32,000 nt of DNA, taken from positions 900,001-932,000 of the forward strand of contig CP042461.1 in assembly GCA_004563595.2 (NCBI GenBank), in the 5' to 3' direction. Shown here piece by piece: positions 4,064 through 30,858 of the stretch. How positions within the stretch are numbered: position 1 is the first letter of the stretch; every line of letters begins with the position of its first letter. A program made the position numbers and the translations under genes. The notes below the pieces were generated by a model. That model was given only the letters and a program-made list of their open reading frames with translations. It was not told the origin of the DNA and ran no database searches. This DNA is from Candidatus Saccharimonadota bacterium. GTDB lineage: Bacteria > Patescibacteriota > Gracilibacteria > BD1-5 > UBA6164.

Positions 4064-4549
4064 ATGATATTTACAACTGTAAATTTCGGACGCTACGAAA
4101 ATAAAAATAAAACTTTACCGCAAATTCTTTTTGATGATGCTGATTGGTTCTTTTACCAATATGAACGAAATCATTTTAAAGGAGCTTTAGCTAACGAATC
4201 TGAATATCTATACCATAGGGCAAGAAATATTTGTATTCCAAAAGAACACCCAGACAATTGGAAGGTAGAATACATGCAGCAACACCCCTCACAAAAATTT
4301 GCTTCTATGATGATCGTACAATTAAGCAAACCTAATCATGAAGGAATAAGTAAGGCTACATATATGGATAGAATCGATATGCGTTTTCCAAAATCTATAG
4401 GTGATTACGATAAACTCGGATATCAACTGTTTATAAAAAATATGAAACATTGTATTTTTGGATCTACAACAATACGTATGACCAAAAAAAAATGTGAGGA
4501 CTTCTTTCGAGATGACTCAAAATTTTTTCTATGATCTACTTTCTCATAG
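4064..4549 (+). CDS. Hypothetical protein, UGA-free ORF; the standard-code stop TGA at 4532-4534 would be read through to TAG at 4547-4549 under table 25
   Basis: 156-aa standard-code ORF with all 6 Gly encoded by GGN and no internal TGA. Classic AGGAG at 4053-4057, 6 nt before the ATG. Under table 25 the terminal TGA adds G-S-T-F-S before TAG. The N-terminal FGRYENKNKTLPQILFDDADWFFYQYE weakly recalls DUF3820-type FGKYKGKTL motifs (low confidence). A strong terminator follows. Confidence 0.65.
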
Positions 4550-4634: not shown

Positions 4635-6689
4635 TTATACTTTCACCTGCCTCTTCTTCAAAACCTTCGCAAGTACAATAGTAATAATAAATAATATGGC
4701 TGCGAAATAGAGCATTGTAATATCAATATCACTAATAGCTTGGCTAAATGATTCTATTTTTTGATTATGAAACGCTGATCAGGCAATAACAAATACTGAA
4801 GCTCATGGGATTATTCAGATAAGAGTAGCAAGGAAGAATCCTTTAAAGTTAATCCTTAAGAATCATGAAATATAGTTTACAAGATCAAATGGAAAAAATA
4901 ATAATCTCGTCATAAGGATCGTCATAAATGGAGATTCATTTGCTTTACTCTTTAAATCATCTACCAGTCATCCATGTGAATCTGGTCAGATAATTTTTTT
5001 CCCAAAAACAGTTCATAAGAAATAGGCAAATGCTGCACTCATATTTTCCCCCACTAATGTGAAAGCAATTCATAACCAAGGACCAAACAATGCACCAGAC
5101 ATAAATGTCATCAAAGTAGCTGGGAATAATACTACTGGTCTAATTGCATAAAAAAGTATGTATATAAATGGCCCAATTGCCATGTTTCCAGATATAAAAT
5201 TATAGATATTTATCGCGATTTGCTCCACATCTAAATTGTTCATCTTTTTATAATAAAAAAATGAAAATATAATTATGAACCAGATAGTGGCTGTTACGAC
5301 TTGGAGTATATTATCTTTGATATAATATTTTGCTTCGTTTTTTATATTCCCCAAAGTATGAATCACAAAACTATCACATACTTTTTTGATGAGTTCTGCT
5401 TTGGTAGGATATGCAAAAATAGTTTTAGAAATCTTATATGCTGAGATATTATTCTCCATTGCTGAAACAAGTATAGGTAACATTTCTCATGCTTTCGTTC
5501 AAGCAATAGTGGCTCATAAAATCTTTCAACTTACTCTTTTAAAATTAATTTTTACAAATCAAACTTCATCATCAGTAAGTTTGCTTCTATCATTTCCTGA
5601 AAAATACAGTGTCTTTGTTACAATATCATCCTTTGAATAATATTTTAATAATTCTGTTCATGTCTTTCATACTCTTGCTATCTCTGTATTTGTATATAAC
5701 ACAGCTGGTAAAACCGACTTTTTTACTGATTTTTTTAAAAATGGAACTAATATGTTTCTTATTACACCTCTTCATTCATTATTTGCAAGGTGAGTAAATT
5801 GAGGATTTCACTTCACACAATCTCATATAGCATATATATTTTTTGAGGATGTTCTGTTAAATTTATCTATAGTTATCCCCTTCTGATCAAACTTTATATT
5901 CGCATTTTTCATATCTAATCCATTCACATTTGCCCCTCTTCATAATGCAATCAAAACTTTATCAAAAGGAATTTTTCTTTCTTTCTTTCAATCCTTATCC
6001 AGAATAACAAGCTCTTTTCATTCAGCTCTCAGAGCAGTTGTATTCTTGCATATTTTTATTCATTTACTTTCAAATATTTTTTCAAGTAATTCTGAAGACT
6101 TTCCTTCTTCTCTTGGGATAAGATTCTTATTTCTTTGGAGAATAGTTACATTGACATTACTATTTGCAAATGATTCTGCAAGCTCACATCCAATATATCC
6201 TCAACCAATAATAACTAATTCTTTTATATTTTCCTCAAGTTCAAATACATTTTCATTTGTAAAAATATCTTTTTTATCGAGTCCTTCAATAGGAACTATA
6301 TTTGCATGTGATCAAGTAGAGATAACAATATTTTTCGCTGTAATTTCTTTTTCTCCATCTATGAGAACTGTATTTTTATCTTTAAAACTGGCAAATCAAC
6401 TGATAACTTTCATTCCATATTTTTCTAATTTTTCTTTTGTCTCTTCATCTCTGATTACTTGCCTTCTTTTTCGTACTTCTTCTAAGACTCATTTTATATC
6501 TTTGTGATGTCCTTTTTTTGCAATATCAATAAAAGCTTTTGATGGCACACATCAAAAGTTAGTACAGTCCCCTCAAAAAAATCATTTTTCTATTAATGCA
6601 ACTTTCTTTCATGCTCATGCAAGTCATATAGAAACTGTGAGTCATCCTGATCCAGATCATATTACTATTACATCATAATCAAATTTCAT
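4635..6689 (-). CDS. Fusion protein: N-terminal FAD-dependent pyridine nucleotide-disulfide oxidoreductase (dihydrolipoamide dehydrogenase/mercuric reductase-like) plus C-terminal DedA/TVP38 (SNARE-associated) membrane domain
   Basis: 684-aa ORF (ATG 6687-6689, TAA 4635-4637), checked codon by codon for absence of TAA/TAG. N-terminus: MKFDYDVIVIGSGSGGLTVSI (FAD fold), redox-active disulfide GGDCTNFGCVPSK, NAD fold LVIIGGGYIGCELAE, and dimerisation region ILGATIAGTKAGEMLPILVSAMENNISAYKISKTIFAYPTKAE. This runs directly into TM helices and the DedA-like YAIRPVVLFPATLMTFMSGALFGPWLG. The junction lies inside standard-code ORF 5070-5483, so the fusion is not a recoding artefact. Confidence 0.85.
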
Positions 6690-6846: not shown

Positions 6847-9081
6847 ATGAATATGAAAAAACAAGCATTTACTATTATCGAGCTTATAGTTGCTATTACA
6901 ATAATGGCTATTATATCAATAATAGCATTTATCTCTCTCCAATGATATTCCAAAAATGCTCGTGATTCAGTGAGGCAATCTGATATTGCACAAATTACCT
7001 CTGTAATGTGATTGTACGAAAAACAAGTATGAAGGTTTCCAAAACCAACCGAATGAGTAGATATAACATATAGTTGAGCACAAGTTTGGAACCAATGAAC
7101 TATTTGAGATAGCGTAATACTAAATTTATGAGATTTTAATCAAAAGCCTGTTGATCCCCTTACCTGATCAGAATATACATATTCAAGACTTAATACAAAA
7201 AGTGAATATGAAGTAGCTGCTGTAATGGAGTGATGAATATCACAAAATATATTAACAGGAAATACATACGCAGAGTGAAACATAACCTGATATACCTATA
7301 TAAGATGAAATTATAATAAAATACTTGCAAAAGTGAATACTTGATCTATTACTTATGTTTTAGGAGTCCCTACTATTATTTCATGAGATATAACGCTAAG
7401 AGATATAATTTCACTTATGCAATCTTCATCTCTCGTGTATAATGGCTCATCTAATTTACCAGCAAGTTATATATGAACTAGGTTCAACTCAAGTTGAAAT
7501 GGTGGATGATTTACATTTAATCCATGAAATATTGTAGCCTATACATGAACTACTGAATCTCTTAGTGATATAGATAATCAAGTGACATTGTTCAATAATT
7601 TACAAACAATTTATACAGCTACTGATGTAGTAAATAATAATGGTATTATTACAAAAATAGTTGATGCAGATGATTGAACTGTAGAAGAAAAGATATTAGC
7701 GAGTATAATAGTAAAGCAACATATTAATTCTTGAATAGAATTATATACGGATACGTGACCTGTATACTTTGTAAGTTCTATCACAACAAACGCATCAGGG
7801 AAATCATATTGAGAATCCATTATTTATGATTCTTCTTGATATATATATATAACAGGTTTGTACAAGTGAGATGTAACAATTTGAACTGATACATATTCTA
7901 GTGCTTGAAATTACGATATATTCTTAGCAAAATTTGATTCTAGTTGAAATTATATATGGAGTCAATCAGCTTGATGAACCGGGAAAGATGTCCCTTATAT
8001 GTTAAATATAGATTCCAGTGATAATTTGTATTTAATATGAAGATTCTCAGATTGAAGTCCTGATATTTTTTGAACAACATTTACTAACTCATGAGATTAT
8101 GACATATTTTTAACAAAATTTGATTCTGATTGAAATGTATTAATCAATAAAAAGTGAGGTTGAACTTGAAATGATAGACCAAAAGGGATAGTAATTTGAA
8201 ATGATTGATCTGTGTATATAACATGACAATATGACTGAACTGCTGATATTTTTTGAATGTCTATCAGCTCTCCTGACGCAAATCCTGATAGTTTTGTAGT
8301 GAAGTTAGATAATACATTAACAAGCACATGGGTCCAAAATGCAAACTCAATTTGAATTGATTGGTGAAATACTATTGCTATAGAGGATATAACTTGAGAC
8401 CTATATATAGCTTGATCTTTTTCAGATAATATGACTTTATATTGAGCCGCTATCACTACTTATTGACAAGGTGATTCATACCTACTTAAAATGAATAATT
8501 CAGGGGTATTACAATGGATAAATACTTCTTGATGAGTATGATATGAAGAGTCTGAACACGTAATCATTGATAATAACTGAGATATTTTTTTTACAGGGTG
8601 GTTTAGATGAATCTCTGCAACACTATTTTGAGAAGTTGTAAGTTCACCAGATAATGGTAGTCGTAATGATACCTATGTTTCAAAATTAACGAGTAATGGT
8701 GTCCTTGTATGGAATAGTATTTGAAAATGACCCGGAAATGATTATGGGCAAAAACTTGCACTAGATAATGATTGAAATATATATTCAGTTTGATCTGTTT
8801 GATTATGAGAAAATAGTTTATTTGGAAAAACTGTCACGACATCGGTAGATGGGGTTACCTATGTAAGCAAGCTTGACTCTAATTGAAATGCTCTCTGGAG
8901 TAAGTTATATTGAGAACATAAAATTAGAGATGATTATTCGGATATAAAGTTTGATGGAACAAGTCTATATCTAGTATGAGGATACGAATGAACATCAACG
9001 GTTGCGTGACAAAGTCTTACAGCTATTTGATCAAATGAAGCATTTTTTGGTAAAATAAACGCGGATTGAAATATTGAATAG
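6847..9081 (+). CDS. Giant type IV pilin/pseudopilin-like protein with a C-terminal beta-propeller-repeat (SBBP-like) domain
   Basis: 744-aa ORF (ATG 6847, TAG 9079-9081), frame checked throughout. N-terminus MNMKKQA|FTIIELIVAITIMAIISIIAFISLQGYSKNARDS is a prepilin-type leader plus hydrophobic helix with Glu at +5. Also a pilin-like QKPVDPLTGSEYTY. The C-terminal two thirds carry repeated units of the type FLAKFDSSGNYIWSQSAGGTGKDVPYMLNIDSSDNLYLIG, FLTKFDSDGNVL, VSKLTSNGVLVW, LDNDGNIYSVG and VSKLDSNGNALW, in which many of the Gly are TGA. Confidence 0.85.
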
Positions 9082-9091
9082 TAAATAGAAT

Positions 9092-9124
9092 AAAAAAAAG
9101 CTAGAGTATATCTAGCTTTTTTAT
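9092..9124. terminator. Bidirectional terminator shared by convergent genes
   Basis: aaaaaaaagctaga-gtata-tctagctttttt: stem gctaga (9100-9105) / tctagc (9111-9116) flanked by an A-run and a T-run. The TAG stop of the minus-strand ORF (9101-9103) lies inside the stem. Confidence 0.7.
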
Positions 9125-9493
9125 TTTATAATAATTTTCTACTTTTATAAAAAAGTCTGAAATTACCTTATTATTTTTTTGAGCCTTGTTTTCAACAGCA
9201 TTGTGTTTCCAATACATTAAAGCCCCCTCACTAAAATCATTGTGCTGTAATATTTTATTACTAACAAACACTATTACTTTCTCTTCTCCTAATTTTATAA
9301 CAATATTATCCCTTATAGAAAAGGAAAGATTATCAATAACACAAAGCTTTGATGATTTACCACATTTTTTATCTTCAGCATGTTTTATCAAAGAAGATAT
9401 GACGTTTGCGTTCTCAACTCCATAATAAATTTGTGTTTTTATTGTAGAACAAGAAACAATTAAGCTTAATAAAAATATCAGAGAAATTCTCAT
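9101..9493 (-). CDS. Small putative lipoprotein, hypothetical (UGA-free)
   Basis: 130-aa ORF intact in both codes. Signal peptide with lipobox MRISLIFLLSLIVSC. All 4 Gly are GGN. SD-like AAAGGA lies 8 nt upstream of the ATG (GG at 9503-9504). Confidence 0.6.
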   Translation of the reverse strand: MRISLIFLLSLIVSCSTIKTQIYYGVENANVISSLIKHAEDKKCGKSSKLCVIDNLSFSIRDNIVIKLGEEKVIVFVSNKILQHNDFSEGALMYWKHNAVENKAQKNNKVISDFFIKVENYYKIKKLDIL

Positions 9494-9561: not shown

Positions 9562-9596
9562 AAAAAAAGACGAGATTTCAAATCTCGTCTTTTTTT
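9562..9596 (-). terminator. Rho-independent terminator of the trx-ccdA-msrAB operon
   Basis: Perfect 10-bp stem agacgagatt (9568-9577) / aatctcgtct (9581-9590). On the minus strand it directly follows the msrAB TAA and is followed by a T-run. Confidence 0.85.
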
Positions 9597-10689
9597 ATTC
9601 TTCAAACATCTTCACATATTCTCAATACCCTTCTCCTTCTAAATCTTCATCAGCTATAAATTTCAGAGCAGCTGAGTTAATACAGTATCTGAGTCATCAT
9701 TGATCAGATGGTCAGTCTGAGAAAACATGTCAGAGATGGGAATCTGCTTTTTCGGACCTGACTTCAGTTCTTGTCATAAAAAACTTTGTATCCTCTACTT
9801 CTTCTATGTTTACTTTATCAATAGGCTTCGAAAAACTTGGCCAACCAGATCATGAGTCATATTTATCTTTTGATGAGAACAATGGGGTCCCATCAACTAT
9901 GTCTACATAAATTCCTGCTTCTTTATTATCATTGTATTCATTATCAAAAGCTCTCTCAGTTGCATTTTCCTGAGTCACTCTATATTGAAGGTCTGTGAGT
10001 CTTTCTTTTAAACTTTCCTTATCATTTTTTGTTTCTACTTTTTTTGCAGAATCTCACCATGTATCTTCTATATATCCTTCCCTTCATGATCATTTTGCAT
10101 AGATTTTATATTTCAAGGCAGATTTCTGTGCGTAATCTTGATGGTACTCTTCTGCTTTATAAAAAGCAGTAAATGGAAGTATTTCAGTTACTATTTTTTC
10201 ATCATACTTTCATGAGTCGTCTAATATCTTTTTTGAATTTTCTAAAATTTCTTTCTCTTCAGGAGTATTATAGTACATCGCTGTTGTGTAGTGAAAACCT
10301 CTATCAGCAAATTGTCATCCTGCATCTGTTGGATCTATTTGCTTCCAGAATAAAGAAACGAGATCTTCATAGTTTACAATTTCTGGATCAAAAACTACTT
10401 TTACTCATTCTCTATGTTTTGTATTTCAAGATGAAACTTCTCAGTATGTGGCAGTTTCTTCTGTTCATCATAGGTATCAGCTTGTTGCTTCGATAACACC
10501 ATCTTGAGCATCCATTATTCACTCAATACACCAGAAACAACCTCAGGCTATGTATAATTCTCTTGCATTTTCTGTTTCCATAGTTTTTTTTGTTATATCT
10601 TCTACCTTTTCCCCATTATTCACATGAACAAAAGCAGAAACTAAAATTATAGTTGCAACAATTCCTAGAACTGTTCATATAGTTTTCAT
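9595..10689 (-). CDS. msrAB: Membrane-anchored/secreted peptide methionine sulfoxide reductase MsrA-MsrB fusion
   Basis: 364-aa ORF, no in-frame TAA/TAG. N-terminal TM/signal [21 protein letters not shown]. MsrA motifs: AGGCFWCIEG, SGYLGGTEETATY, HREGVKVVFDP. MsrB motifs: [20 protein letters not shown] (G = TGA at 9730-9732), [10 protein letters not shown]. Confidence 0.93.
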
Positions 10690-10691
10690 AA

Positions 10692-11423
10692 TTATTTATT
10701 TACTTTATCTAAAATACTCTGTTCAAAATTTGTAATATCAAATATTCCAGCATCAATAACAGCTGACTCAAAGTCTTTATCCCATCACATTATAATTGCA
10801 AAACCTAAAAATAGAAATAATACTCATAGTACTTTTTTAAATTTTGATTTTGGACTTGAAATTCATTTTACTTTTGATATAAATTTCTGACCAAGAAGAG
10901 CTATAAGTAATAATACTACACTCAACCCAGTTACATATGCAAGAAGGTTTATAATTCCTGTCATAAAACTTGCTGGCAGTACCACGGCAAGAATAATTGC
11001 ATATGTTGGACTACAGCTTGAAAAGACAGGACCAAGAGAGAGTCAAACCATAACACTTCATATATGTCATTTTTTTTGAGCACTTTTTCACAATAATTTA
11101 TTTGAATTACTTGAAAATCCTAACTTTGTAGAAATATTTTTCCATACATCTGGAAATAATGTTACAATTCAAAACCCTATAATAAGAACTCATGAAAATA
11201 ACTTCCAAACGATTGGATCAATAGCAATAAACAGAGTTGTTGCTTTGAGTACGAGCGAGAATACAATAATTGATGCAGCAAGTGACAGAATAATTATATA
11301 TGGTCGTATTTTATCTTTTGCATCTTCTATACTTGCTCATAAAATCACTGGTAAAAGAGGTAAAACACACGGAGATAATATGGTTAAAACTCCTGCGAAA
11401 AATGATACTATTAGTAGTCACAT
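10692..11423 (-). CDS. ccdA: CcdA/DsbD-family thiol-disulfide electron-transfer membrane protein
   Basis: 243-aa ORF, ATG-TGA start at 11418-11423, TAA 10692-10694, 2 nt upstream of the msrAB ATG. Motifs: AGVLTILSPCVLPLLPVILG and second-half LGPVFSSCSPTYA. Multiple TM helices. Confidence 0.9.
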
Positions 11424-11450
11424 GATTATTTTTTATTATTAAATAAGCCC

Positions 11451-11488
11451 CTTGAATTCTTTCCCCTTATAAGGGGAAAGAATTCAAG
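11451..11488 (-). promoter_or_regulatory. Long perfect intra-operon stem-loop between the thioredoxin gene and ccdA
   Basis: 18-bp perfect inverted repeat cttgaattctttcccctt (11451-11468) / aaggggaaagaattcaag (11471-11488) with a 2-nt centre, locally GC-richer than the flanks. It sits 10 nt after the upstream stop and 27 nt before the ccdA ATG. The minus-strand downstream sequence GGGCTTATTTAATAAT is only weakly U-rich. Confidence 0.5.
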
Positions 11489-11498
11489 TGAAGAGGTA

Positions 11499-12755
11499 TT
11501 AAGATTTCACTTCAGCTAAAATATCTTTTACACTTCTTGATCCGAACCATTTTTTTATCATGTTTCCATTATCATCAATTTGTACAAAAGTGTGTTGTCA
11601 AACAACTTCATATTGTTTTCTTAAAGCAGTACTCGAGTCAAAATCTACTTTAAAGATATTTAATCAAGCTGGTATAGTTTCTGCTGAAATATTCTTGTCA
11701 GCTGCTTTACAACTACTACACCAAGTTGCATGGAAGAATAAAATTTTATCTCATAATGCATTTTTTACTGCTTCTTGTGAATACTCAACATATTGTCATA
11801 TATTATTTTTCACTTCCTCAGTTTCTAAAACCGGCTGAACTTCTACCTCTACTTCTTCTTTTACTTCTGTTTTTGTTTCTTCTTGTATCTCTTCTTTTAC
11901 TTCTGTTTTTGTTTCTGTTTTCACTTTTATATTTTTATGTTCTCCTAGTCCACTTAATATATCTTCTACTGTTTTTGAAGCTCTCCACATTTTTAATTTA
12001 TTCATTTTTTTATCTACTTCTACAAAAGTATGCTGAGAAGTGACTCCGTATTTTTGTCTTAATTCAACATTTGAATCAAAATCTATTTTAAAAATACTTA
12101 AACCAGCTGGTATTTCAGATCCTCTCAGACTCGTATCAGCAGCTTTACATGTTGCACACCATGAAGCATGAAAGAATAATACTCTTCTTCATTTCCCTGC
12201 TTTTACTTCTTCTGCTACATTTGATTCAGTCACATCTTTATAAATACCTTTTTCAAAAGTCACAGATGTTTTTTCAGAAAATCATACTTCTCATTCTATA
12301 TCTTCTATAGTTTTTCCTCAAATCCACTTTTTTATCATATTTCATTCATTATCAACTTGAACAAAAGTATGTTGAGCAACGATTCAATATTTTTTTCTTA
12401 ACTCAAAATTTGAGTCGTAATCTACTTTAAAAACACTTAATCCAGAGGGAACTCATGATTCAGTTATATTCTTATCAGCAGTTTTACAACTCCCACACCA
12501 ACTTGCATTAAAAAATAAAACTTTCTTTCATTCTGTATTTTGAATAGCTTCTTTACTGTATGTAATATATTGTCATTTAGATTGATCTAAAGAAATATCT
12601 TTTATTTGTTTATCTTCAGTTTTTTGATCTTCTATATTTGTAACATTTGCAACTTTAGAATTTGTATCCTCCTGTACCTTTTGGTCTTGTCATGATGTAC
12701 ATGATGCTAAAAATAAAACTCATAAAATAGGTATTAAAACAAGTAATTTTTTCAT
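11499..12755 (-). CDS. Lipoprotein with three tandem thioredoxin-like domains (WCGSC, WCATC, WCSSC)
   Basis: 418-aa ORF (ATG 12753-12755, TAA 11499-11501), frame checked. Lipobox MKKLLVLIPILGVLFLASC. Three paralogous modules of about 95 aa each carry VLFF(N/H)A(S/T)WCxxCKxAD ... GL(S/N)(V/I)FK(V/I)D(Y/F)DS ... QHTFV(Q/E)(V/I)D. A K/E/T-rich linker separates modules 2 and 3. Confidence 0.9.
11855..11916 (-). repeat. Tandem 36-nt repeat in the K/E/T-rich linker of the triple-thioredoxin gene
   Basis: Identical 26-nt core cttcttttacttctgtttttgtttct at 11855-11880 and 11891-11916 (period 36 nt), encoding the repeated ETKTEVKEE units. Confidence 0.8.
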
Positions 12756-20600: not shown

Positions 20601-21120
20601 CTCTTGAATCTAAATCTGTAAGAGGAACCATTGGTATATTAAAAAATACAGCCAAGCTTTGTCACAGATTATTTAATTCTCATGATGGAGTTATTTTGAG
20701 AACTTTTGCTCACGAAACAATTTCAATAAGGAAATGAATATCACTTTCAAGTGCCCTTCATTTTTTTGTTTGTAATCATTTTAAAAAACTAATACTCAAT
20801 TCATCTCAAGTCTTATTCTTCTCAAGAAAGGTATATCTGAGTACATTTGATTGAAGCATAGATATCTTCCCTTCAATATTTGATTCAAAGTTTTGTATAC
20901 TTGTTTCATCTAAATCATACGAAAAAGTGAAGTCTATATGATCTTCTGTTACTGGTATTTTTTTATATCACAAATCAAAATTTCAAGCTGTAACTTCAAA
21001 TTTTGCAGGGGCTAGGTTTTCAAAAAAGTTTGTATTTTTTTGAAAATGAAAGAACCCAGTAATTACAAATATAAATATTACTAGAGCTGAAATCATTGCA
21101 TATCTTTTCCTCTTTTCCAT
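14623..21120 (-). CDS. Bacterial alpha-2-macroglobulin family protein (thioester-containing, N-terminally membrane anchored), 2165 aa
   Basis: Every triplet from 21120 down to 14623 was checked: no TAA/TAG and dozens of TGA. N-terminal anchor MEKRKRYAMISALVIFIFVITGFF. MG-domain signatures TERPIYKPGDIVYFKG and FHIEEYRKPDFKL. RGTFKDTAYWSADVTTDTNGKVSMTTTNLPDNLTTWVIETLA. Thioester site YPYGCSEQ. C-terminal receptor-like region VAFEGFIPAGSELVNPNL ... EYRTDRYFAYTDRLYNGIHNFSYLIRLTHAGEYHIKPTKISEFYNVEVFGRTRGEIFKVK. Confidence 0.92.
16249..16272 (-). other. Thioester motif YPYGCSEQ of the A2M homolog
   Basis: The minus-strand codons TAT CCA TAC GGT TGT TCT GAA CAA can be read directly. This is the CxEQ thioester signature (E. 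coli YfhM has CLEQ, eukaryotic A2M has CGEQ). Confidence 0.85.
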
Positions 21121-21151
21121 GTGTTGATATTTTAATTATAAACTCTTTTAT

Positions 21152-21179
21152 ATTTTAGATTTTTTAGTAAGATTGTAAA
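21152..21179 (-). promoter_or_regulatory. Possible sigma70-like promoter for the A2M gene
   Basis: Minus strand TTTACA (21174-21179), 16 nt spacer, TAAAAT (21152-21157), about 30 nt upstream of the ATG and downstream of the preceding terminator. Such matches are frequent in AT-rich DNA, so this is weak. Confidence 0.25.
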
Positions 21180-21203
21180 GAAGTTTTGTAGTATTTTTTT
21201 GTT

Positions 21204-21230
21204 TTAAAAAACTCCCTTGGTTGAGGGAGT
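21204..21230 (-). terminator. Rho-independent terminator separating the hypothetical gene from the A2M gene
   Basis: Stem actccct (21211-21217) / agggagt (21224-21230) with loop tggttg, followed on the minus strand by TTTTT. It starts 8 nt after the stop at 21238. Confidence 0.75.
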
Positions 21231-21237
21231 TCAAATC

Positions 21238-22065
21238 TTATTTTTTTGTTTTTATAATGAATCAAATAATGAAAATAATAAAAATTCAAATAATATAGTA
21301 TAAATTACCGATTTTATTATTTTCAGAAATAGCTAGTATTTCTTCCTTATCCAAGAAATCCTTATTATCTATATAATTTAAATTTTTATTTATAGCACTT
21401 TTACCTTTGCAGAATCATCCATTTTTAATAACTTCATTTACAATTTTTTGCTGAATTGCTATTTTTTCTTCCTCAGAACTATATTTTTCATATGGAATTC
21501 ATATAGATTCAAATATAACAGGTCAAATACCTTCAAACAAAGAGTTGCAATCTATAACTCAGTCTATTCATATCCCTGTTCAGTCTATTTTCGTAATACC
21601 ATTTTTCAAATATACCTGAGAAATTTCTTCTTCCCATTGATCTTCAGATTTTTTTTCAGGGGTATTTCTATTTATAGCAAAGTCTCCCCTCTTATCTCTA
21701 TAATTAGTGATAATAGTGTCTCATTTTTGAGGACGATATCATCCATTTTTCACATATTCCGATGCTATCATATCCAAAGAAAACTCACTCGTTGAAACAT
21801 ATACTCATTTACTCAATAACTTGGTTTCATCTCATCTATGAGTAAAATATTTATAATTTTCAAGTTCAAACACATAATACTTTCTCTTATCCTCTCATAC
21901 TTCTAAAGAATAATATGGATCTTTATCCAAAGTAATAATCTTTACATTTCATACCTCTCATAAAATAAAACCATATTCTATTTCATTAAGTCATTTTCCC
22001 CCTCAAGCAAAAGAGTCAGCAAGAAGAAATATTTGCAGTAATAATATGCATAATATTTTTTTCAT
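21238..22065 (-). CDS. Hypothetical exported protein with an N-terminal signal peptide and a C-terminal hydrophobic anchor plus basic tail
   Basis: 275-aa ORF under table 25, frame checked, with many in-frame TGA. N-terminus MKKILCILLLQIFLLADSFAGGG. C-terminus NNKIGNLYYIIGIFIIFIIGFIIKTKK-stop. No recognisable catalytic motif. Confidence 0.7.
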
Positions 22066-22090
22066 AACAATATTTATTATCTAGTAAAAT

Positions 22091-22114
22091 AAGGGTGAGT
22101 TTAAACTCACCCTT
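22091..22114 (-). terminator. Terminator hairpin after the amidase-domain gene
   Basis: Perfect 10-bp stem aagggtgagt (22091-22100) / actcaccctt (22105-22114) with loop ttaa, followed on the minus strand by ATTTTA (modest U-tract). Confidence 0.65.
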
Positions 22115-22134
22115 GTAAAAGTCAAGCAACTATC

Positions 22135-22821
22135 TTAGTTACGATAAAATGTTGGTCTATACACATGAAACACTGTATATGTTTGATTAATTGACTGTAA
22201 TGTAACATTTTTCTGTGAAGAATGACCATCACTATTTTGGTAGCTTACCTTGATGCCACTATATGAATTATATAGCTTATCAGTCACTATCATAGAATGA
22301 TCAATATGCCCATTTCCTGACCAATCAGCAAAAATAACATCACCCTCTTCAACTTTTGAAGTATTCAAGTATTGCGTTGAACTATCTTTGGTTATAAAAT
22401 CAAAGTGCATCCCCCAATATGAATTTGAGTTACTTTTTGCATAAGTGTAGAGTTCATGAGCACCAGCCCATGCATAACCTCGTGATGATGGAGTATTATA
22501 ATACCAACAATAATCACACCCTTTATCTCTATCTGCCATATAATAGCCACGCTTATTATATACATAGTTCTTGTCAGAATTATCTACCAAACCAGCTAAA
22601 ACTGCTTGACTAACAAAGTTAGTACAGTTTCCACCATATGATTGATACTCTGGAAATGCAGTACTAGTTTTTGCATAATTCAATGCATACTGTACTGCTG
22701 GAGTACTGGAATAAGTACAAACCCCCTTAGCATAGTCACCACATGAGCTTGAACTCGCAGACATAGCTACACTTGAAAAAAATGAAGCTAGTACAATCAA
22801 AACAACAAAAATTTGTCGCAT
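22135..22821 (-). CDS. Secreted putative cell-wall amidase (Amidase_6 / NlpC-P60-like papain-fold domain), UGA-free
   Basis: The ORF is uninterrupted in the standard code. Preferred start is ATG at 22819-22821 (MRQIFVVLIVLASFFSSVAMSA signal peptide); the stop is TAA. Motifs: AVQYALNYA ... YGGNCTNFVSQAVLAG (Cys nucleophile context) and GHIDHSMIV (His). All 15 Gly are GGN and none is TGA. Trp is TGG. The sequence is visibly less AT-rich than its neighbours. SD-like AAGGAAAAG lies upstream of the ATG. Confidence 0.8.
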   Translation of the reverse strand: MRQIFVVLIVLASFFSSVAMSASSSSCGDYAKGVCTYSSTPAVQYALNYAKTSTAFPEYQSYGGNCTNFVSQAVLAGLVDNSDKNYVYNKRGYYMADRDKGCDYCWYYNTPSSRGYAWAGAHELYTYAKSNSNSYWGMHFDFITKDSSTQYLNTSKVEEGDVIFADWSGNGHIDHSMIVTDKLYNSYSGIKVSYQNSDGHSSQKNVTLQSINQTYTVFHVYRPTFYRN

Positions 22822-23149
22822 TTTTCTTTTCCTTTTGTTTGTGTTTTTACTTCCAACCTTGAAAGCACACAAAATATATGAAAAAACTTTTCTTTTACAA
22901 ATTTATTCTCGACTTTCTTCTCTATTTTAAGCCATTTTAACTTTTCAAGACATTCATTATAATGACAAGACATTAACAGGACATTAACAAAAATAATTTT
23001 CTATTTTTAAATGTTAAAAACTTAATTTTCATCCCTTTAAATTCTGATTTTTATTTTCATATTTTTAAAAAATATTTTTTTATCTTCTCTATATTGATAA
23101 TTCAGGTCATTTCTATACAATCAATATATAATCTTCTCATCAGAAAAAA

Positions 23150-25144
23150 ATGAAAAAAATAAAATTACTCCTCATCTTTATTCCTCTCCTGTTAATTTTC
23201 ACATCAATACTCTCATTAAAAATCAACCTTCCCACACCTTCTACTATTATATATGACAGTCACGATATTGAAATAGGAGAAATTATACAAGATGAAAAAA
23301 CAAGACATAGACCGATAAAAATTGAAGATATCCCTGAGTTCACAAAACAAGTTATAATAACTCTTGAGGATAAATCATTTTACTCAAATATTTGAATAGA
23401 TTTTAAAGCTATAGCAAGATCACTGTATAATAATATTTCTTCATGAAAAATAGTTGAATGAGCATCAACTCTCTCAACTCAAGTAATTAGAAATAATTTT
23501 TGGCTTAATAAAAAAAGAAGTTATTCCAGAAAAATATCTGAATTTTATCTCGCTCTTATTTTAAATACAAAATATTCAAAAGATGAAATACTCGAAAATT
23601 ATCTCAATAGAATATATTTTTGAAATCTTAACTACTGAATAGAATCAGCTTCACAATATTATTTCGGCAAAACATTACAGAACCTAACAAAAGCTGAGCA
23701 AATTGCTCTTCTTATTATTCCAAAAAATTCAAGCAAGTATTCTCCAAATAAACCAAGCTTCAGAGTACGTTTTGAAAAGGTAGTAAACTATTTGCAAGAT
23801 AACTGAGTTTTATCAGCAAATGAAGCAAGAAATATCCTCAATGAAAAATTAGATTTTAATTATGAATCTAATGCTACTCTTCCCTATATTGTTGATTATA
23901 TTCAAGCAAATAAGCTAGAAAAAGAAAGTAATATAAAAACAAGTATAGATTATTACCTCACAAAAGAGATTGAAAAACTGGCTCTGGATACTGTTTCAAG
24001 TCTATTTTGGAAAGATGTATGAGATTATTGAGTCTTAGTTGTTGATAGAAAAACAAATGAAATAAAAATAATGATATGATGAATAGATTATTATTTAGAA
24101 AATGGGCAAGTAAATTCAACAACAGCTCTTAGGCAAGCTTGATCAACTATAAAACCTTTTACCTATATACTAGCATTTCAAGAACTTTGATATAAACCAA
24201 GCTCAACCATAATAGACCTCCCTATACAGTTTTCCACTGCTGAAGGAAATACTTATAGCCCAAAAAACTACTCACTTGATTATAAATGAGAAGTAACATT
24301 AGCAGAAGCACTCAGCCAAAGTATCAATATTCCAGCCGTAAAACTTACAAATGAAATCTGACTCACAAGATTATACGATTTTTTAAAGTCACTTAACTTT
24401 TCTACCCTTAATGAAGATCCAGAATATTACTGACTTGCGTTAACTCTCGGAGTGTGAGAAATGAAATTAATAGAACTATTAGAAGCCTATACTATATTTG
24501 CTCATGAGTGAAGTATATGTAAGTTTACTATACTCTCTGATTCTGAAAATATTTGTGATCATAAAATAGAAAAAAAATATACTGATATGGTTAATGAAAT
24601 ACTTACAAATAGGTATTTTAAACTTGGATGATTCCCTATTCATTCAAATCTTGATTTTCCAGACAGAAACGTATTTGTAAAAACATGAACTTCAAGAAAT
24701 TTTAGAGATAATTGGTCAATATGATTTACAGATAATTATATGATCTGAGTTTGGGTATGAAACAAAGATGGGACATACATGAAATGAGTTTCTTGAACCA
24801 GTTGAGCTGGAGATATATTTAGGAAAATTGTATACTTGCTCGAAAAAGAAGATCAAGATACAAATGCTATAATATATGATTCATCTGAATTAGAATACTT
24901 AGATATTATATCTCCACTTGATGGAAGTATTTACAAGCAAGGTATAATACAACAAAGAAACCAAGTAAAACTTGGTTTCAAAACAAATATAAATTTTAAT
25001 AATTATGCTTGGGAAGTGAATTGAAAATTATATGATGCAGATTTTTTAGATTTAGAAGCCTGAAATCATGACATAAAAATTAGTATATTTCAGAACTGAA
25101 AATTAATAGGATCTGAGAGTTCGAGAATAGTAGTTGAGGAATAA
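23150..25144 (+). CDS. pbpC: Penicillin-binding protein 1C (bifunctional GT51 transglycosylase / transpeptidase with PbpC-type C-terminal domain)
   Basis: 664-aa ORF, frame 2 checked line by line. TM anchor MKKIKLLLIFIPLLLIF. GT51 motifs EDKSFYSNIGID, GASTLSTQVIRN, RKISE, KDEILENYLNRIYFG. Transpeptidase motifs RQAGSTIKPF (SxxK), SQSINIPAV (SxN), KTGTSRNFRDNW (G = TGA at 24686-24688). C-terminal LDIISPLDGSIY-type domain. Confidence 0.92.
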
Positions 25145-28971: not shown

Positions 28972-30858
28972 TTAATTTTGTTGAGTATATTCAGTTCAAA
29001 CAGCCCCATGAGGAACATTATTCTTCTTTCATCAATCTACTATTACGTGACTCGCTAAACTAAATGATGATGTTGTATAATGTATGGCAACTCTTCAACC
29101 TCATCCTCATCATCCACTATTTCCTGGATATGTAGCATGATAATATGCATTTCATCCATTTGCATAAATATACCCTGTTCATGATATATCTCAGGCTTCT
29201 ATCCATACACTTCATCAAGAACCTCATCATCCCGCTCTTCTTTGTGTACTTCACATCGTTCATGTTCAATCTGCTCAGTTTGTAGTTATAACCCCATCCA
29301 AAACCATACTTCAAGCTATATGTAATTGAATTGCTCATCCTCCTTTTCATCCATAACTCCAGTTTCATCATCCACTTCATATATCTATTGGCTCAGTTGA
29401 ACTTCCGTAAGATGGTCATCATGCAGCCGAAAATCCTGATGCTCAAGCTCATCCATATCCTCATCCTCATCCAGTATAATACCAGGTTGGTCCTGATTCA
29501 TATACATAATATACTCAATTTCCAGGTCATGTACCTTTATTATATCACCCAAAATCAGCATTTATATATCAACCTGATTCTAAAGTCATACTTGAAGCAA
29601 CAATATTAACAATATTTACTTTTGAAGTTGTGTTAGGTACATGTATTATGGTACCATTTGACTTAACAGTTATATCTCAAATCATTGTTAATTCAGATAG
29701 TCATGATAGCTGAAGAGTAGTTGCATTCGTTCATCATATTTCTAAAGAATAGACTTCAACTCATCATGTAGTATCAAGACTAATAGTTGCATTTGCATCA
29801 ATAGTTACTGCGTCTGATGATGTTGGTAACCTTCATAGATCCCAATTGGCAGTATTTGACCAACTTGTACTTGCTCCTCAAGTCCAAACAATAGGAGTCG
29901 GTGGAATACAAGCATCTCATACTGATTTAACAAATCAAGTATTACATTTCCAACTACATCCTGCAGTTGCTGATATATCGTAAGACCATGATTGGTCATC
30001 TGATGTAGCCGTTCAGTTGTAATATACTGCATTGCCTATACTTGGTTCTGCAGAACATGCATAAGATACAAGCTTTCCTCATAAGAGTAATACTGCAAAA
30101 TTTTCTAAATCGTTATTATCACCTAAGTTTACTCAAGAGAGATAATTGTATTCTCCAGCACTTAAATCAGTTGATCCACTATAAGCAGAGTGTAGGTTTG
30201 TTGTAAAATTTGCATAATTACCAGAAATATTACTTGTATTTACTCCTAAATCTTGCACTGTAAATAGAGTGTCATGTGTATCTACATGGAACGTTGATTC
30301 CGCAGATAAATCTGCACCATCAGCATGAAGTGAAGGTGATGCATAGTATTTGTTATCACCTCAAATAACATAAAAACCATTATATTGTCATACTACCTTT
30401 GGAAAAGTTGTTTCAGAGGCATAAGTAGAATTTGTGATATTATTTTGTTGTGTTACCTCAAAATCATACATAAGTTGATATTCCTTTTGATTCAAGGTTG
30501 TTGAGTAATTCATATATTTTCAAGTCAATGGGTCTTCTGGGATTTTTGATATCCTCCCAACTTGTGTTTGTATAGAAGTAGCTACTTCTCATGTATGCCA
30601 AAGGTTTGTTCCTGATGCTGTTACGAGTGTTGATGAGTCTGGAAGAGGGTACTTACCATACTTAATCACATGTAATTCTAATACATTTTTAATTGATTGC
30701 ATATCAACTATTCTTGTAGAGTTTCTGGCTAATTTACTATATCATTGAAGTGATATAAAAGCGATTGTTCATAAAATAGCCAAAATAGTAATTGTAACGA
30801 TCAATTCAACAAGGGTAAAAGCTTTAGTAGATCGATATGTTTTTTCAAGTATGTTCAT
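28972..30858 (-). CDS. Giant type IV pilin/pseudopilin-like protein with a glycine-rich (beta-helix-like) C-terminal domain
   Basis: 628-aa ORF (ATG 30856-30858, TAA 28972-28974), every triplet checked. N-terminus MNILEKTYRSTKA|FTLVELIVTITILAILGTIAFISLQGYSKLARNS is paralogous to the 6847 gene. Also KIPEDPLTGKYMNY. The C-terminal third has YYTGGGGGYGGAGASGFSAAGGPSYGS, GSGGGNWSYGGKGGGAIQLHIAG, RRAGGGGSGGSVWIEAGDISGTGYIYANGGNA and GNSGGGGGGGRVAIHYT. Confidence 0.85.

Follow-up and report, generated by a model that had tools for sequence, protein, structure and literature searches.

In a 32,000-nucleotide stretch of the genome of Ca. Gracilibacteria bacterium 28_42_T64 (contig CP042461.1, positions 900,001 to 932,000; the whole stretch is called the window here, and its copy of a gene W), a gene for a predicted secreted amidase of the Amidase_6 family contains no in-frame TGA, in a host that uses TGA for most of its glycines. 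The same avoidance is found in its homologues from other TGA-recoded genomes, and it looks like a maintained family trait rather than the mark of a recently imported gene. We propose that the amidase is a long-resident secreted enzyme, encoded in a two-gene module and selected to be translatable without the UGA-reading tRNA-Gly, an explanation to which we give an even chance of being right. As an enzyme it is an ordinary addition to Amidase_6; what stands out is its maintained avoidance of a codon.

The window belongs to the 1.34-Mb closed BD1-5 genome of Sieber et al. 2019 (PMC6851277), and the amidase is 100% identical to A9Q91_04280 of that organism. Open reading frames (ORFs) of the window are shattered under translation table 11, and if only TAA and TAG are taken as stops they become long ORFs full of in-frame TGA; the host genome reads TGA as glycine (code 25). 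In 20 other genes of the window TGA makes up 59% of glycine codons, with a per-gene range of 0.26-0.75. The amidase uses GGT (7), GGG (4), GGA (2) and GGC (2) for its 15 glycines. This zero, pointed out in a first-pass annotation of the window, is confirmed and is non-random, being repeated in other recoded genomes. The gene and its export signal are as follows.

22135..22821, minus strand: amidase coding sequence, ATG at 22821 and TAA stop, 228 aa, 0 in-frame TGA and 15 GGN
22744..22821, minus strand: Sec signal peptide MRQIFVVLIVLASFFSSVAMSA, then SSSSC, as predicted from the sequence

The closest homologues form a compact set, clade A, whose members are 44-68% identical to one another. Thirteen of them have genomic context in TGA-recoded contigs (recovered contexts of homologues are numbered L001 and so on). 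Twelve of these contain no TGA at all among 196 glycine codons (W 0/15, L001 0/16, L002 0/17, L003 0/14, L005 0/16, L085 0/17, L170 0/18, L173 0/22, L175 0/17, L176 0/14, L178 0/17 and L179 0/13), and L174 has 1/24, at a variable site, giving 1/220 for all 13 together. The genes adjoining these amidases in the recoded hosts use TGA for 58-90% of glycine codons. Many databases call genes under table 11, which brings a risk of ascertainment bias. The copies from L003, L005, L085, L170, L173, L174, L176 and L179 come from code-4 or code-25 calls or from DNA scans, which are unbiased against TGA, and they too hold only 1 TGA among 138 glycine codons. Fragmentation of TGA-bearing copies in the databases was considered as an artefact and rejected, as none of five short matches shows a TGA-split pattern: P0015 is short owing to a TAA (checked in DNA), and of the four others, judged from protein sequence and contig size alone, P0006 and P0054 apparently run off the ends of short contigs (960 and 910 nt), P0045 resembles an N-terminal chimera and P0013 seems to carry a frameshift.

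For the window gene by itself, a binomial model puts the probability of 0 TGA in 15 glycine codons at 1.7e-6, and a beta-binomial fitted to the window genes, which allows for gene-to-gene variation, puts it at 2.8e-4; the chance of about 3e-5 given in the first-pass annotation sits between the two. In a genome of the order of a thousand genes (about 1,200, estimated and uncounted), the overdispersed value alone is not decisive for one gene, and this is the point in favour of chance, or of a compositional artefact in a slightly GC-richer gene. However, the pattern recurs in 12 further recoded genomes (11 with 0 TGA and one with 1/24), and the joint beta-binomial probability over six genomes, W and five others, is ~1e-43. 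Window genes of equal GC content (0.33-0.34) are rich in TGA, with 53 TGA to 41 GGN and 20 TGA to 12 GGN. Moreover, a survey of about 110 kb of recoded DNA, with about 82 genes, turned up only two that are TGA-free and have at least 8 glycine codons, namely the amidase and an ORF in L003 that shares its promoter and leader. We regard chance or composition as extremely improbable.

Avoidance of the TGA motif as such, for example as a nuclease site, was ruled out, since out-of-frame TGA occurs at the host frequency. In-frame TGA stands at 0.04 per 100 codons in the amidases versus 4.64 in their neighbours, and out-of-frame TGA at 1.57 and 4.63 versus 1.47 and 5.13. TGA use is normal (12/16 glycines) in a distant Amidase_6 paralogue from another Gracilibacterium. 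A further distant paralogue lies in L020 (OY760177.1, 772631-785020), on a 1.9-Mb chromosome labelled Candidatus Gracilibacteria, where no ORF in 12 kb has an in-frame TGA; the lineage may lack TGA recoding, or it may be loosely labelled, and its paralogue was set aside as uninformative.

There has been ample time for TGA to enter the family. Every conserved glycine column varies among GGT, GGA, GGG and GGC, and GGA is one G-to-T step from TGA. The glycine equilibrium of the carrier genomes is 60-90% TGA. Third-position identity is flat, at 0.55-0.62, for recoded copies of 44% to 65% amino-acid identity, which indicates that even the closest pairs have reached saturation at synonymous sites.

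The L003 ORF mentioned above (L003:11975-13029, and L004:3657-4544) is 280-295 aa long, with 0 TGA and 20 GGN, a signal peptide and no Pfam match. It lies just after the amidase module, and over ~200 nt, which take in the promoter, the 5' leader and the first 12 codons, it is near-identical to the amidase gene. The leader of the L001 amidase resembles that of L003; this promoter and leader of ~200 nt, common to L003 and L001, does not align to the upstream regions of W, L002, L005 or L085. Only one homologue of the ORF (P0092, 48% identity) was found in 5.8 billion proteins, and a second TGA-free family is not established. In the window, two small ORFs with no Pfam match, at 9101-9493 (minus strand; 0 TGA and 4 GGN) and 4064-4549 (plus strand; 1 TGA and 6 GGN), are candidates for the same avoidance, with counts that are singly not significant.

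Codon usage beyond glycine was contrasted between amidases and neighbouring genes with tests stratified by genome (OR, odds ratio).

Glycine, TGA versus GGN: TGA 0% in amidases, about 70% in neighbours; OR 0, p about 1e-65
Arginine, AGR versus CGN: AGR 58% in amidases, 93% in neighbours; OR 0.08, p about 1e-18
Split boxes (Leu, Lys, Glu, Gln, Arg), NNA versus NNG: G-ending 29% in amidases, 13% in neighbours; OR 0.35, p=8e-15
Four-fold boxes, NNA versus NNG: G-ending 11.6% in amidases, 10% in neighbours; OR 0.78, p=0.25
Four-fold boxes, A/T versus G/C: GC 13.5% in amidases, 10.2% in neighbours; OR 0.59, p=5e-5

The signature is specific to codon families. The window gene had been described as less AT-rich than its flanks, and its overall GC content is indeed 0.346 versus 0.292 in other genes, the excess lying in codon positions 1 and 2 and in the choice of glycine and arginine codons. 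The foreign composition implied by that description does not extend to neutral sites: four-fold-site GC is 10.7% versus 15.8% in the neighbours, and GC at third codon positions (GC3) outside glycine is 0.18 versus 0.16. The G excess in split boxes alone is hard to ascribe to incomplete amelioration, because G-to-A transitions at two-fold sites should be among the first to occur under AT pressure.

Ordinary translational selection, in which a very highly expressed amidase avoids a reassigned codon that is decoded slowly or inaccurately, has one observation on its side: TGA makes up 44% of glycine codons in the ribosomal-protein genes of L003 and ~70% in other L003 genes, so that expression level seems to lower TGA. 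Yet these genes do keep TGA at 44%, and the 1 TGA in 220 glycine codons of the amidases is far beyond such a reduction. The ribosomal-protein genes also favour AGA (95%), GAA (96%), CAA (100%) and TTA, and because these preferences are the opposite of the amidase signature, that signature is not ordinary high-expression bias. This explanation appears very improbable.

The under-used codons UGA, AGA, UUA, AAA, GAA and CAA are, by the general pattern of bacterial decoding, the split-box codons read by tRNAs with U34, and the preferred alternatives are readable by other isoacceptors. According to our proposal, the clade would have diversified mostly inside TGA-recoded (code 25) candidate phyla radiation (CPR) genomes with its reading frame kept TGA-free, purifying selection on decoding keeping the amidase mRNA translatable without the UGA-reading tRNA-Gly. 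A lesser avoidance would apply to the other host-majority split-box codons, AGA, UUA, AAA, GAA and CAA, which are assumed to be read by U34 tRNAs. The enzyme may be made when heavily used tRNAs are poorly charged or unavailable, for example during amino-acid starvation of a host-dependent cell that attacks or remodels a wall. We propose starvation-robust synthesis because the under-used codons are U34 split-box codons, because in selective-charging theory an isoacceptor whose codons are in low demand remains charged when amino acids run short (Elf et al. 2003, as represented in PMC1183508), and because 28_42_T64 is predicted to need external amino acids (PMC6851277). Like the starvation-robust codon choice known elsewhere, the amidases shift away from the most-used host codons where another isoacceptor reads the alternative, and not at four-fold sites; unlike it, the extreme case here is a reassigned stop codon, the avoidance is near-absolute, and the link is a proposed one. 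As a by-product the ORF would be readable under both codes, which fits an occasional export to standard-code bacteria. A literature search of incomplete coverage returned no description of gene-specific avoidance of a reassigned codon in code-25 bacteria.

The assignment of the protein itself is straightforward. It matches Pfam Amidase_6 (PF12671) with E=4.8e-22 and 79.2 bits against a cut-off of 23.2, over profile positions 2-157 of 163, and the first-pass annotation was right in calling a 228-aa secreted Amidase_6 protein of probable papain fold, with a predicted signal peptide; the motifs CTNFVSQ and DHSMIV are present in its sequence. No other Pfam family was matched at E<=0.01, neither NlpC/P60 (PF00877), to which the protein had also been likened, nor CHAP (PF05257), and an NCBIfam scan returned no family. 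One homologue, P0004, has a precomputed PF05257 entry; the relation of the amidase to NlpC/P60 or CHAP is one of superfamily level only. Cys66 (of CTNF) and His175 (of DHSM) are invariant in alignments of 19 and of 13 sequences, alongside D166, W167, D174, R222 and P223, and their counterparts are kept in the distant paralogues of L014 and L020. A Cys-His dyad suffices in Amidase_6, with no third residue required, and a classification of papain-like enzymes places the family among peptidoglycan amidases, next to Tae3, a type VI secretion system (T6SS) effector (PMC10318531).

An AlphaFold2 model of the amidase has a predicted local distance difference test score (pLDDT) of 90.3 and a predicted template modelling score of 0.87, with lower pLDDT in the N-terminal helix (residues 2-14). 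All homologues have a hydrophobic N-terminus equivalent to that of W, and the conservation of Cys pairs points to a protein that is disulfide-bonded and lies outside the cytoplasm. The only strong fold match in the PDB by Foldseek is the integrative model of Bacillus subtilis YjcM-YjcN (9a4p, E=3e-6), and PDB sequence searches with the single sequence and with a profile found no relative of solved structure. In the viral fold library (BFVD) there are weak matches to CHAP and NlpC/P60 lysins (E 1e-3 to 5e-2, TM 0.3-0.4). YjcM and YhbB of B. subtilis share the family profile and the CTNF...DHSM Cys-His pair with the window protein, and YjcM-YjcN is likewise an amidase paired with the product of a neighbouring gene. 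The Amidase_6 proteins of Firmicutes and Actinobacteria differ in being at most 35% identical to the window protein, which is single-domain and secreted and has extra Cys pairs; it differs from Amidase_6 at large in that its compact clade occurs mostly in code-25 CPR genomes. YjcM and YhbB are both biochemically uncharacterised (PMC10653849) and thus give no activity to carry over. The protein is most likely a Sec-exported papain-fold hydrolase with a Cys66/His175 dyad that acts as a peptidoglycan amidase or endopeptidase outside the cytoplasm, a role for which the place of the family beside Tae3 is good ground. The breaching of a host wall by the predicted enzyme is plausible.

The amidase gene opens a conserved module of two genes, of which the second encodes a fast-evolving protein predicted to be extracytoplasmic and membrane-anchored. 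In the window this partner is as follows.

21238..22065, minus strand: partner gene, 275 aa, signal peptide and C-terminal transmembrane anchor, no Pfam match, 17 TGA and 11 GGN

Of the recoded loci with enough downstream sequence, 9/9 have, downstream on the same strand, a gene whose product carries a signal peptide and a membrane anchor. Homologues of the W partner are found at the L001 and L003 loci, and it is remotely homologous, over its full length, to the partners of L175, L170 and L085 (hhalign 95.7%, E=1e-8). Because the partner families of different subclades are thus remote homologues, the two-gene module is old. The amidases of the W subclade share an orthologous partner, and the branching order of the partner tree is compatible; the partner evolves much faster than the amidase. 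Pooled over loci, the partners have TGA at 99/125 glycine codons and are host-like in every codon contrast. The partners of the window (21238-22065), L001, L003, L005, L170, L173, L175 and L176 have TGA at 79% of glycine codons versus 69% in neighbours (OR 1.69, p=0.03), and these genes are extremely AT-rich (GC content 0.14-0.26), the opposite extreme to the adjoining amidase.

From the arrangement alone, the partner could be an immunity factor, an inhibitor or a tether. No similarity of the partner to known immunity families was detectable, and a PADLOC scan of amidase and partner at E<=0.01 gave no defence-system match. As in the T6SS pairs Tae/Tai and TseH/TsiH, a papain-fold cell-wall amidase is followed directly by the gene for an exported protein, and as in effector-immunity pairs the partner changes much faster than the enzyme. 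Immunity proteins evolve fast. TseH has HHpred matches to Amidase_6 and its immunity gene is directly downstream (PMC4453574), but TseH has no Sec-type signal, which the window amidase has. The PDB sequence search and Foldseek found no similarity of the amidase to Tae or Tse proteins; in this and in its Sec signal the module departs from what defines such pairs. No T6SS genes turned up when ten of the window's 21 ORFs were scanned against Pfam, although no search aimed at T6SS was made. One further reading of the module, which we consider improbable, is that it acts as a sensor of the genetic code, with a UGA-free wall-degrading amidase and a UGA-packed putative immunity or inhibitor partner. 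If UGA decoding failed, for example through a TGA-free phage that disables tRNA-Gly(UCA) or supplies release factor 2, or through a tRNA-targeting toxin, the partner would not be replenished while the amidase would still be made, and self-lysis or abortive infection might follow. The module would then work as a toxin-antitoxin pair whose logic depends on a reassigned codon.

Phylogenetic analysis bears on how long the amidase has been in recoded hosts. W falls in a subclade with 96% bootstrap support, of which all members with known context (5/5) are in recoded hosts. The homologues closest to W (59-68% identical) are on other TGA-recoded contigs and are likewise TGA-free, and throughout, recoded copies are most closely related to one another. 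In 5.8 billion proteins, IMG/VR and INPHARED, nothing standard-code or viral above ~48% identity to any recoded-host copy was found. A comparison with homologues from Firmicutes and Actinobacteria had been suggested; no relative from these groups exceeds 35% identity, and non-CPR relatives reach at most 35-48%. The recent horizontal acquisition put forward in the first-pass annotation is not supported: of three outcomes named beforehand as speaking against it, two were found, namely this placement among TGA-free copies in recoded genomes and the native composition of the neutral sites.

Import can also be framed more broadly, each amidase having arrived recently or recurrently from standard-code or code-neutral donors (unsampled low-GC bacteria or TGA-free CPR phages), with the absent TGA and retained CGN codons as unameliorated donor features. 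This is the main rival to our proposal, and it is fed by several observations. The outgroup, clade B, is wholly standard-code and includes Polyangium and Proteobacteria, and standard-code lineages are nested inside clade A, namely Sedimenticola with L177 (99% bootstrap) and, separately, L172. The distribution of the amidase is patchy and its genomic locations are non-syntenic, and its GC content and GC3 are usually above those of its recoded neighbours. In addition, 34/38 predicted Gracilibacteria phages have no in-frame TGA (PMC10746230). Against import stand the absence of standard-code or viral sequences above the ~48% limit, the recoded nature of the nearest relatives, and the synonymous saturation of all pairs. 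The co-located partner is host-like and TGA-rich, a contrast that goes unexplained if both genes share a history, and the four-fold-site GC of W lies below that of its neighbours, with the G-ending excess confined to split boxes. The L179 copy (1266-1340), from a recoded host, carries TGA at exactly the position where related amidases stop with TAA; read in code 25, its frame continues for 24 codons, across the terminator hairpin, before a TAA ends it. The TGA may be a relic stop of the standard code, as import would have it, or a TAA-to-TGA stop-loss transition, which explains it equally well given that all other members of the subclade end in TAA. Import as a whole we consider unlikely, though it is to be taken seriously.

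A phage endolysin was considered and ruled out, as viral matches are only distant or weak and there is no phage neighbourhood: the best IMG/VR match has 26-27% identity, the best INPHARED tblastn match 32% over 60% of the query, PHROGs gave one partial endolysin match (E=0.0046), the BFVD matches are those given above, and the neighbouring window genes are cellular. The TGA-free phages predicted for Gracilibacteria and Absconditabacteria (PMC10746230) resemble the amidase gene in being DNA that works in a code-25 cell and is readable under both codes. They differ from it in that here a single chromosomal gene of ~0.7 kb lies between TGA-rich host genes with no phage genes nearby, there is no close viral homologue, and the recoded-host copies end in TAA or TAG rather than in TGA with a backup stop.

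Movement of the wider family across genetic codes, in keeping with the first-pass idea of horizontal transfer, is borne out by the standard-code members nested in clade A. The family is accessory and mobile, its code-neutral ORF allows cross-code transfer, and horizontal movement is real. The standard-code copies are lower in GC content than their surroundings (L172 0.467 vs ~0.60, L177 0.38 vs ~0.50), which suggests export from low-GC genomes. At L172:10001-11572 a low-GC island (0.45-0.47) is made up of the clade A amidase and, downstream of it, the gene for a multi-pass membrane protein unrelated to the partners, in a standard-code contig of ~60% GC, with alpha-lytic-protease genes nearby and an integrase and AlpA ~10 kb upstream; the stop of this amidase is TGA, and a TAA four codons on serves as backup. 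In the window, no mobility genes were noticed in the Pfam scans of ten of its 21 ORFs, and no repeat search was made. The orthologue in L003 (L003:9692-10381, GCA_002422305.1; also L004:1516-1896) has an in-frame TAA at codon 36 in place of the CAA (Gln) of its relatives. The TAA was read in L003, and the 126-aa product of the TAA-bearing orthologue is found in four contigs from NCBI and ENA sources. This copy, still at 0 TGA/14, is either a recent pseudogene or the source of a truncated product.

These observations raise the question of whether mobility itself could be the object of selection, at the level of gene lineages, the amidase being a selfish, effector-like gene that is often transferred: copies that gain TGA would be trapped in code-25 hosts and die out, and code-neutral lineages would survive. 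The same argument has been made for TGA-free phages by Liu et al. 2023 (PMC10746230), which serve as a precedent. At least two crossings of the code boundary within clade A, the lower-GC settings of L172 (with the integrase and AlpA ~10 kb off) and L177, the accessory and patchy distribution, the turnover seen if the L003/L004 copy is pseudogenised and the shuffling of amidase and partner types all agree with it. However, most members, and the whole of the subclade with 96% support, are in recoded hosts, so most transfers would be from code 25 to code 25, where TGA is not penalised. Saturated sister copies would each need a recent passage through a standard-code host, yet the searches found no intermediates of this kind; nor does the idea account for the NNG preference in split boxes and the CGN codons. 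We judge it decidedly unlikely.

Several points weigh against long residence under selection on decoding. AGA is merely lowered in the amidases (52% vs 82%) while TGA is nearly excluded, which a graded charging effect does not obviously predict, and the split-box signature is uneven: W, L001, L005, L170 and L173 show it strongly, L003, L175 and L176 weakly. Pooled four-fold-site GC is slightly up (the 13.5% vs 10.2% listed above), and whole-gene GC3 is above that of the neighbours in most loci, which could be residual foreignness. No tRNA genes were found by tRNA scans of the window and seven recoded loci, and the proposed mechanism is drawn from codon usage. The nested Sedimenticola/L177 and L172 lineages count here as well, as does the L178 module, which is shuffled, with a W-type amidase and an L005-type partner. 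Finally, the backbone of the amidase tree is unresolved, and the presumed vertical residence is read from the amidase and partner trees.

The remaining elements of the locus are listed below.

22826..22836, minus strand: purine box resembling a Shine-Dalgarno (SD) sequence, AAAGGAAAAG, read from the sequence, with GG 9 nt upstream of the amidase ATG
22873..22900, minus strand: weak sigma-70-like promoter candidate, TTGTAA-16-TATATT (9/12 matches), ~52 nt upstream of the amidase ATG
22091..22114, minus strand: intrinsic-terminator-like hairpin AAGGGTGAGTTTAAACTCACCCTT with T-rich tail, in the interval that separates amidase and partner

The SD-like box had been recognised in the first-pass annotation, which nevertheless ran the gene to 22836; 22822-22836 is the ribosome-binding region. 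Orthologues have stronger boxes, AGGAGG or GAGGAGG, at the same place. Sigma-70-like matches of this grade are as frequent in shuffled sequence, so the promoter is a candidate only. The proposed terminator is upheld: the hairpin (22114-22091, minus strand) is the sole terminator-like site in 21100-23200 (2.1 kb), where 0.4 would be expected, and other recoded loci have equivalent hairpins after the amidase stop codon. An Rfam scan of the window and five related loci at gathering thresholds found no riboswitch or leader RNA upstream of the amidase. Amidase, partner and an alpha-2-macroglobulin (A2M) gene all lie on the minus strand, and a penicillin-binding protein (PBP) gene is divergent. The amidase had been placed between A2M and PBP1C. 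The A2M neighbour is sound (MG2, A2M, A2M_BRD, bMG10 and TED domains matched), but the 275-aa partner intervenes and had been missed, and the PBP shows only Transgly and Transpeptidase domains in Pfam, which leaves PBP1C a tentative label. This neighbourhood had been thought suggestive of function; it is conserved at no other locus examined.

Other genes of the window deserve brief mention. Two large proteins, at 6847-9081 (plus strand) and 28972-30858 (minus strand), have N-terminal methylation motifs like those of type IV pilins (PF07963) and glycine-rich, repeat-rich bodies, and with 70 and 53 in-frame TGA codons they are the densest in the window. A three-gene redox cluster at 9595-12755 (minus strand) comprises, by eye, a fused MsrA/MsrB-like protein, a CcdA-type membrane protein and a 418-aa lipoprotein-like protein with three tandem thioredoxin-like repeats, each with WCxxCK. 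At 4635-6689 (minus strand), a pyridine-nucleotide-disulfide oxidoreductase (Pyr_redox_2 and dimerisation domain) is fused to a C-terminal membrane domain of VTT/DedA type.

A missing reassigned codon is widely taken as a sign of recent foreign DNA, and that inference fails here; for TGA-free genes in recoded genomes, orthologues and neutral sites should be compared before horizontal transfer is called. The amidase can be expressed in E. coli without recoding, and its family is apparently already present in standard-code bacteria. If the avoidance is indeed kept up by selection, a stop codon that has been reassigned is more than just another synonym, and individual code-25 genes would be tuned for or against it. 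UGA decoding would then be conditional or costly in a way that cells exploit, and the codon would offer a handle on the regulation of a candidate attack or wall-remodelling enzyme in uncultured, host-dependent bacteria.

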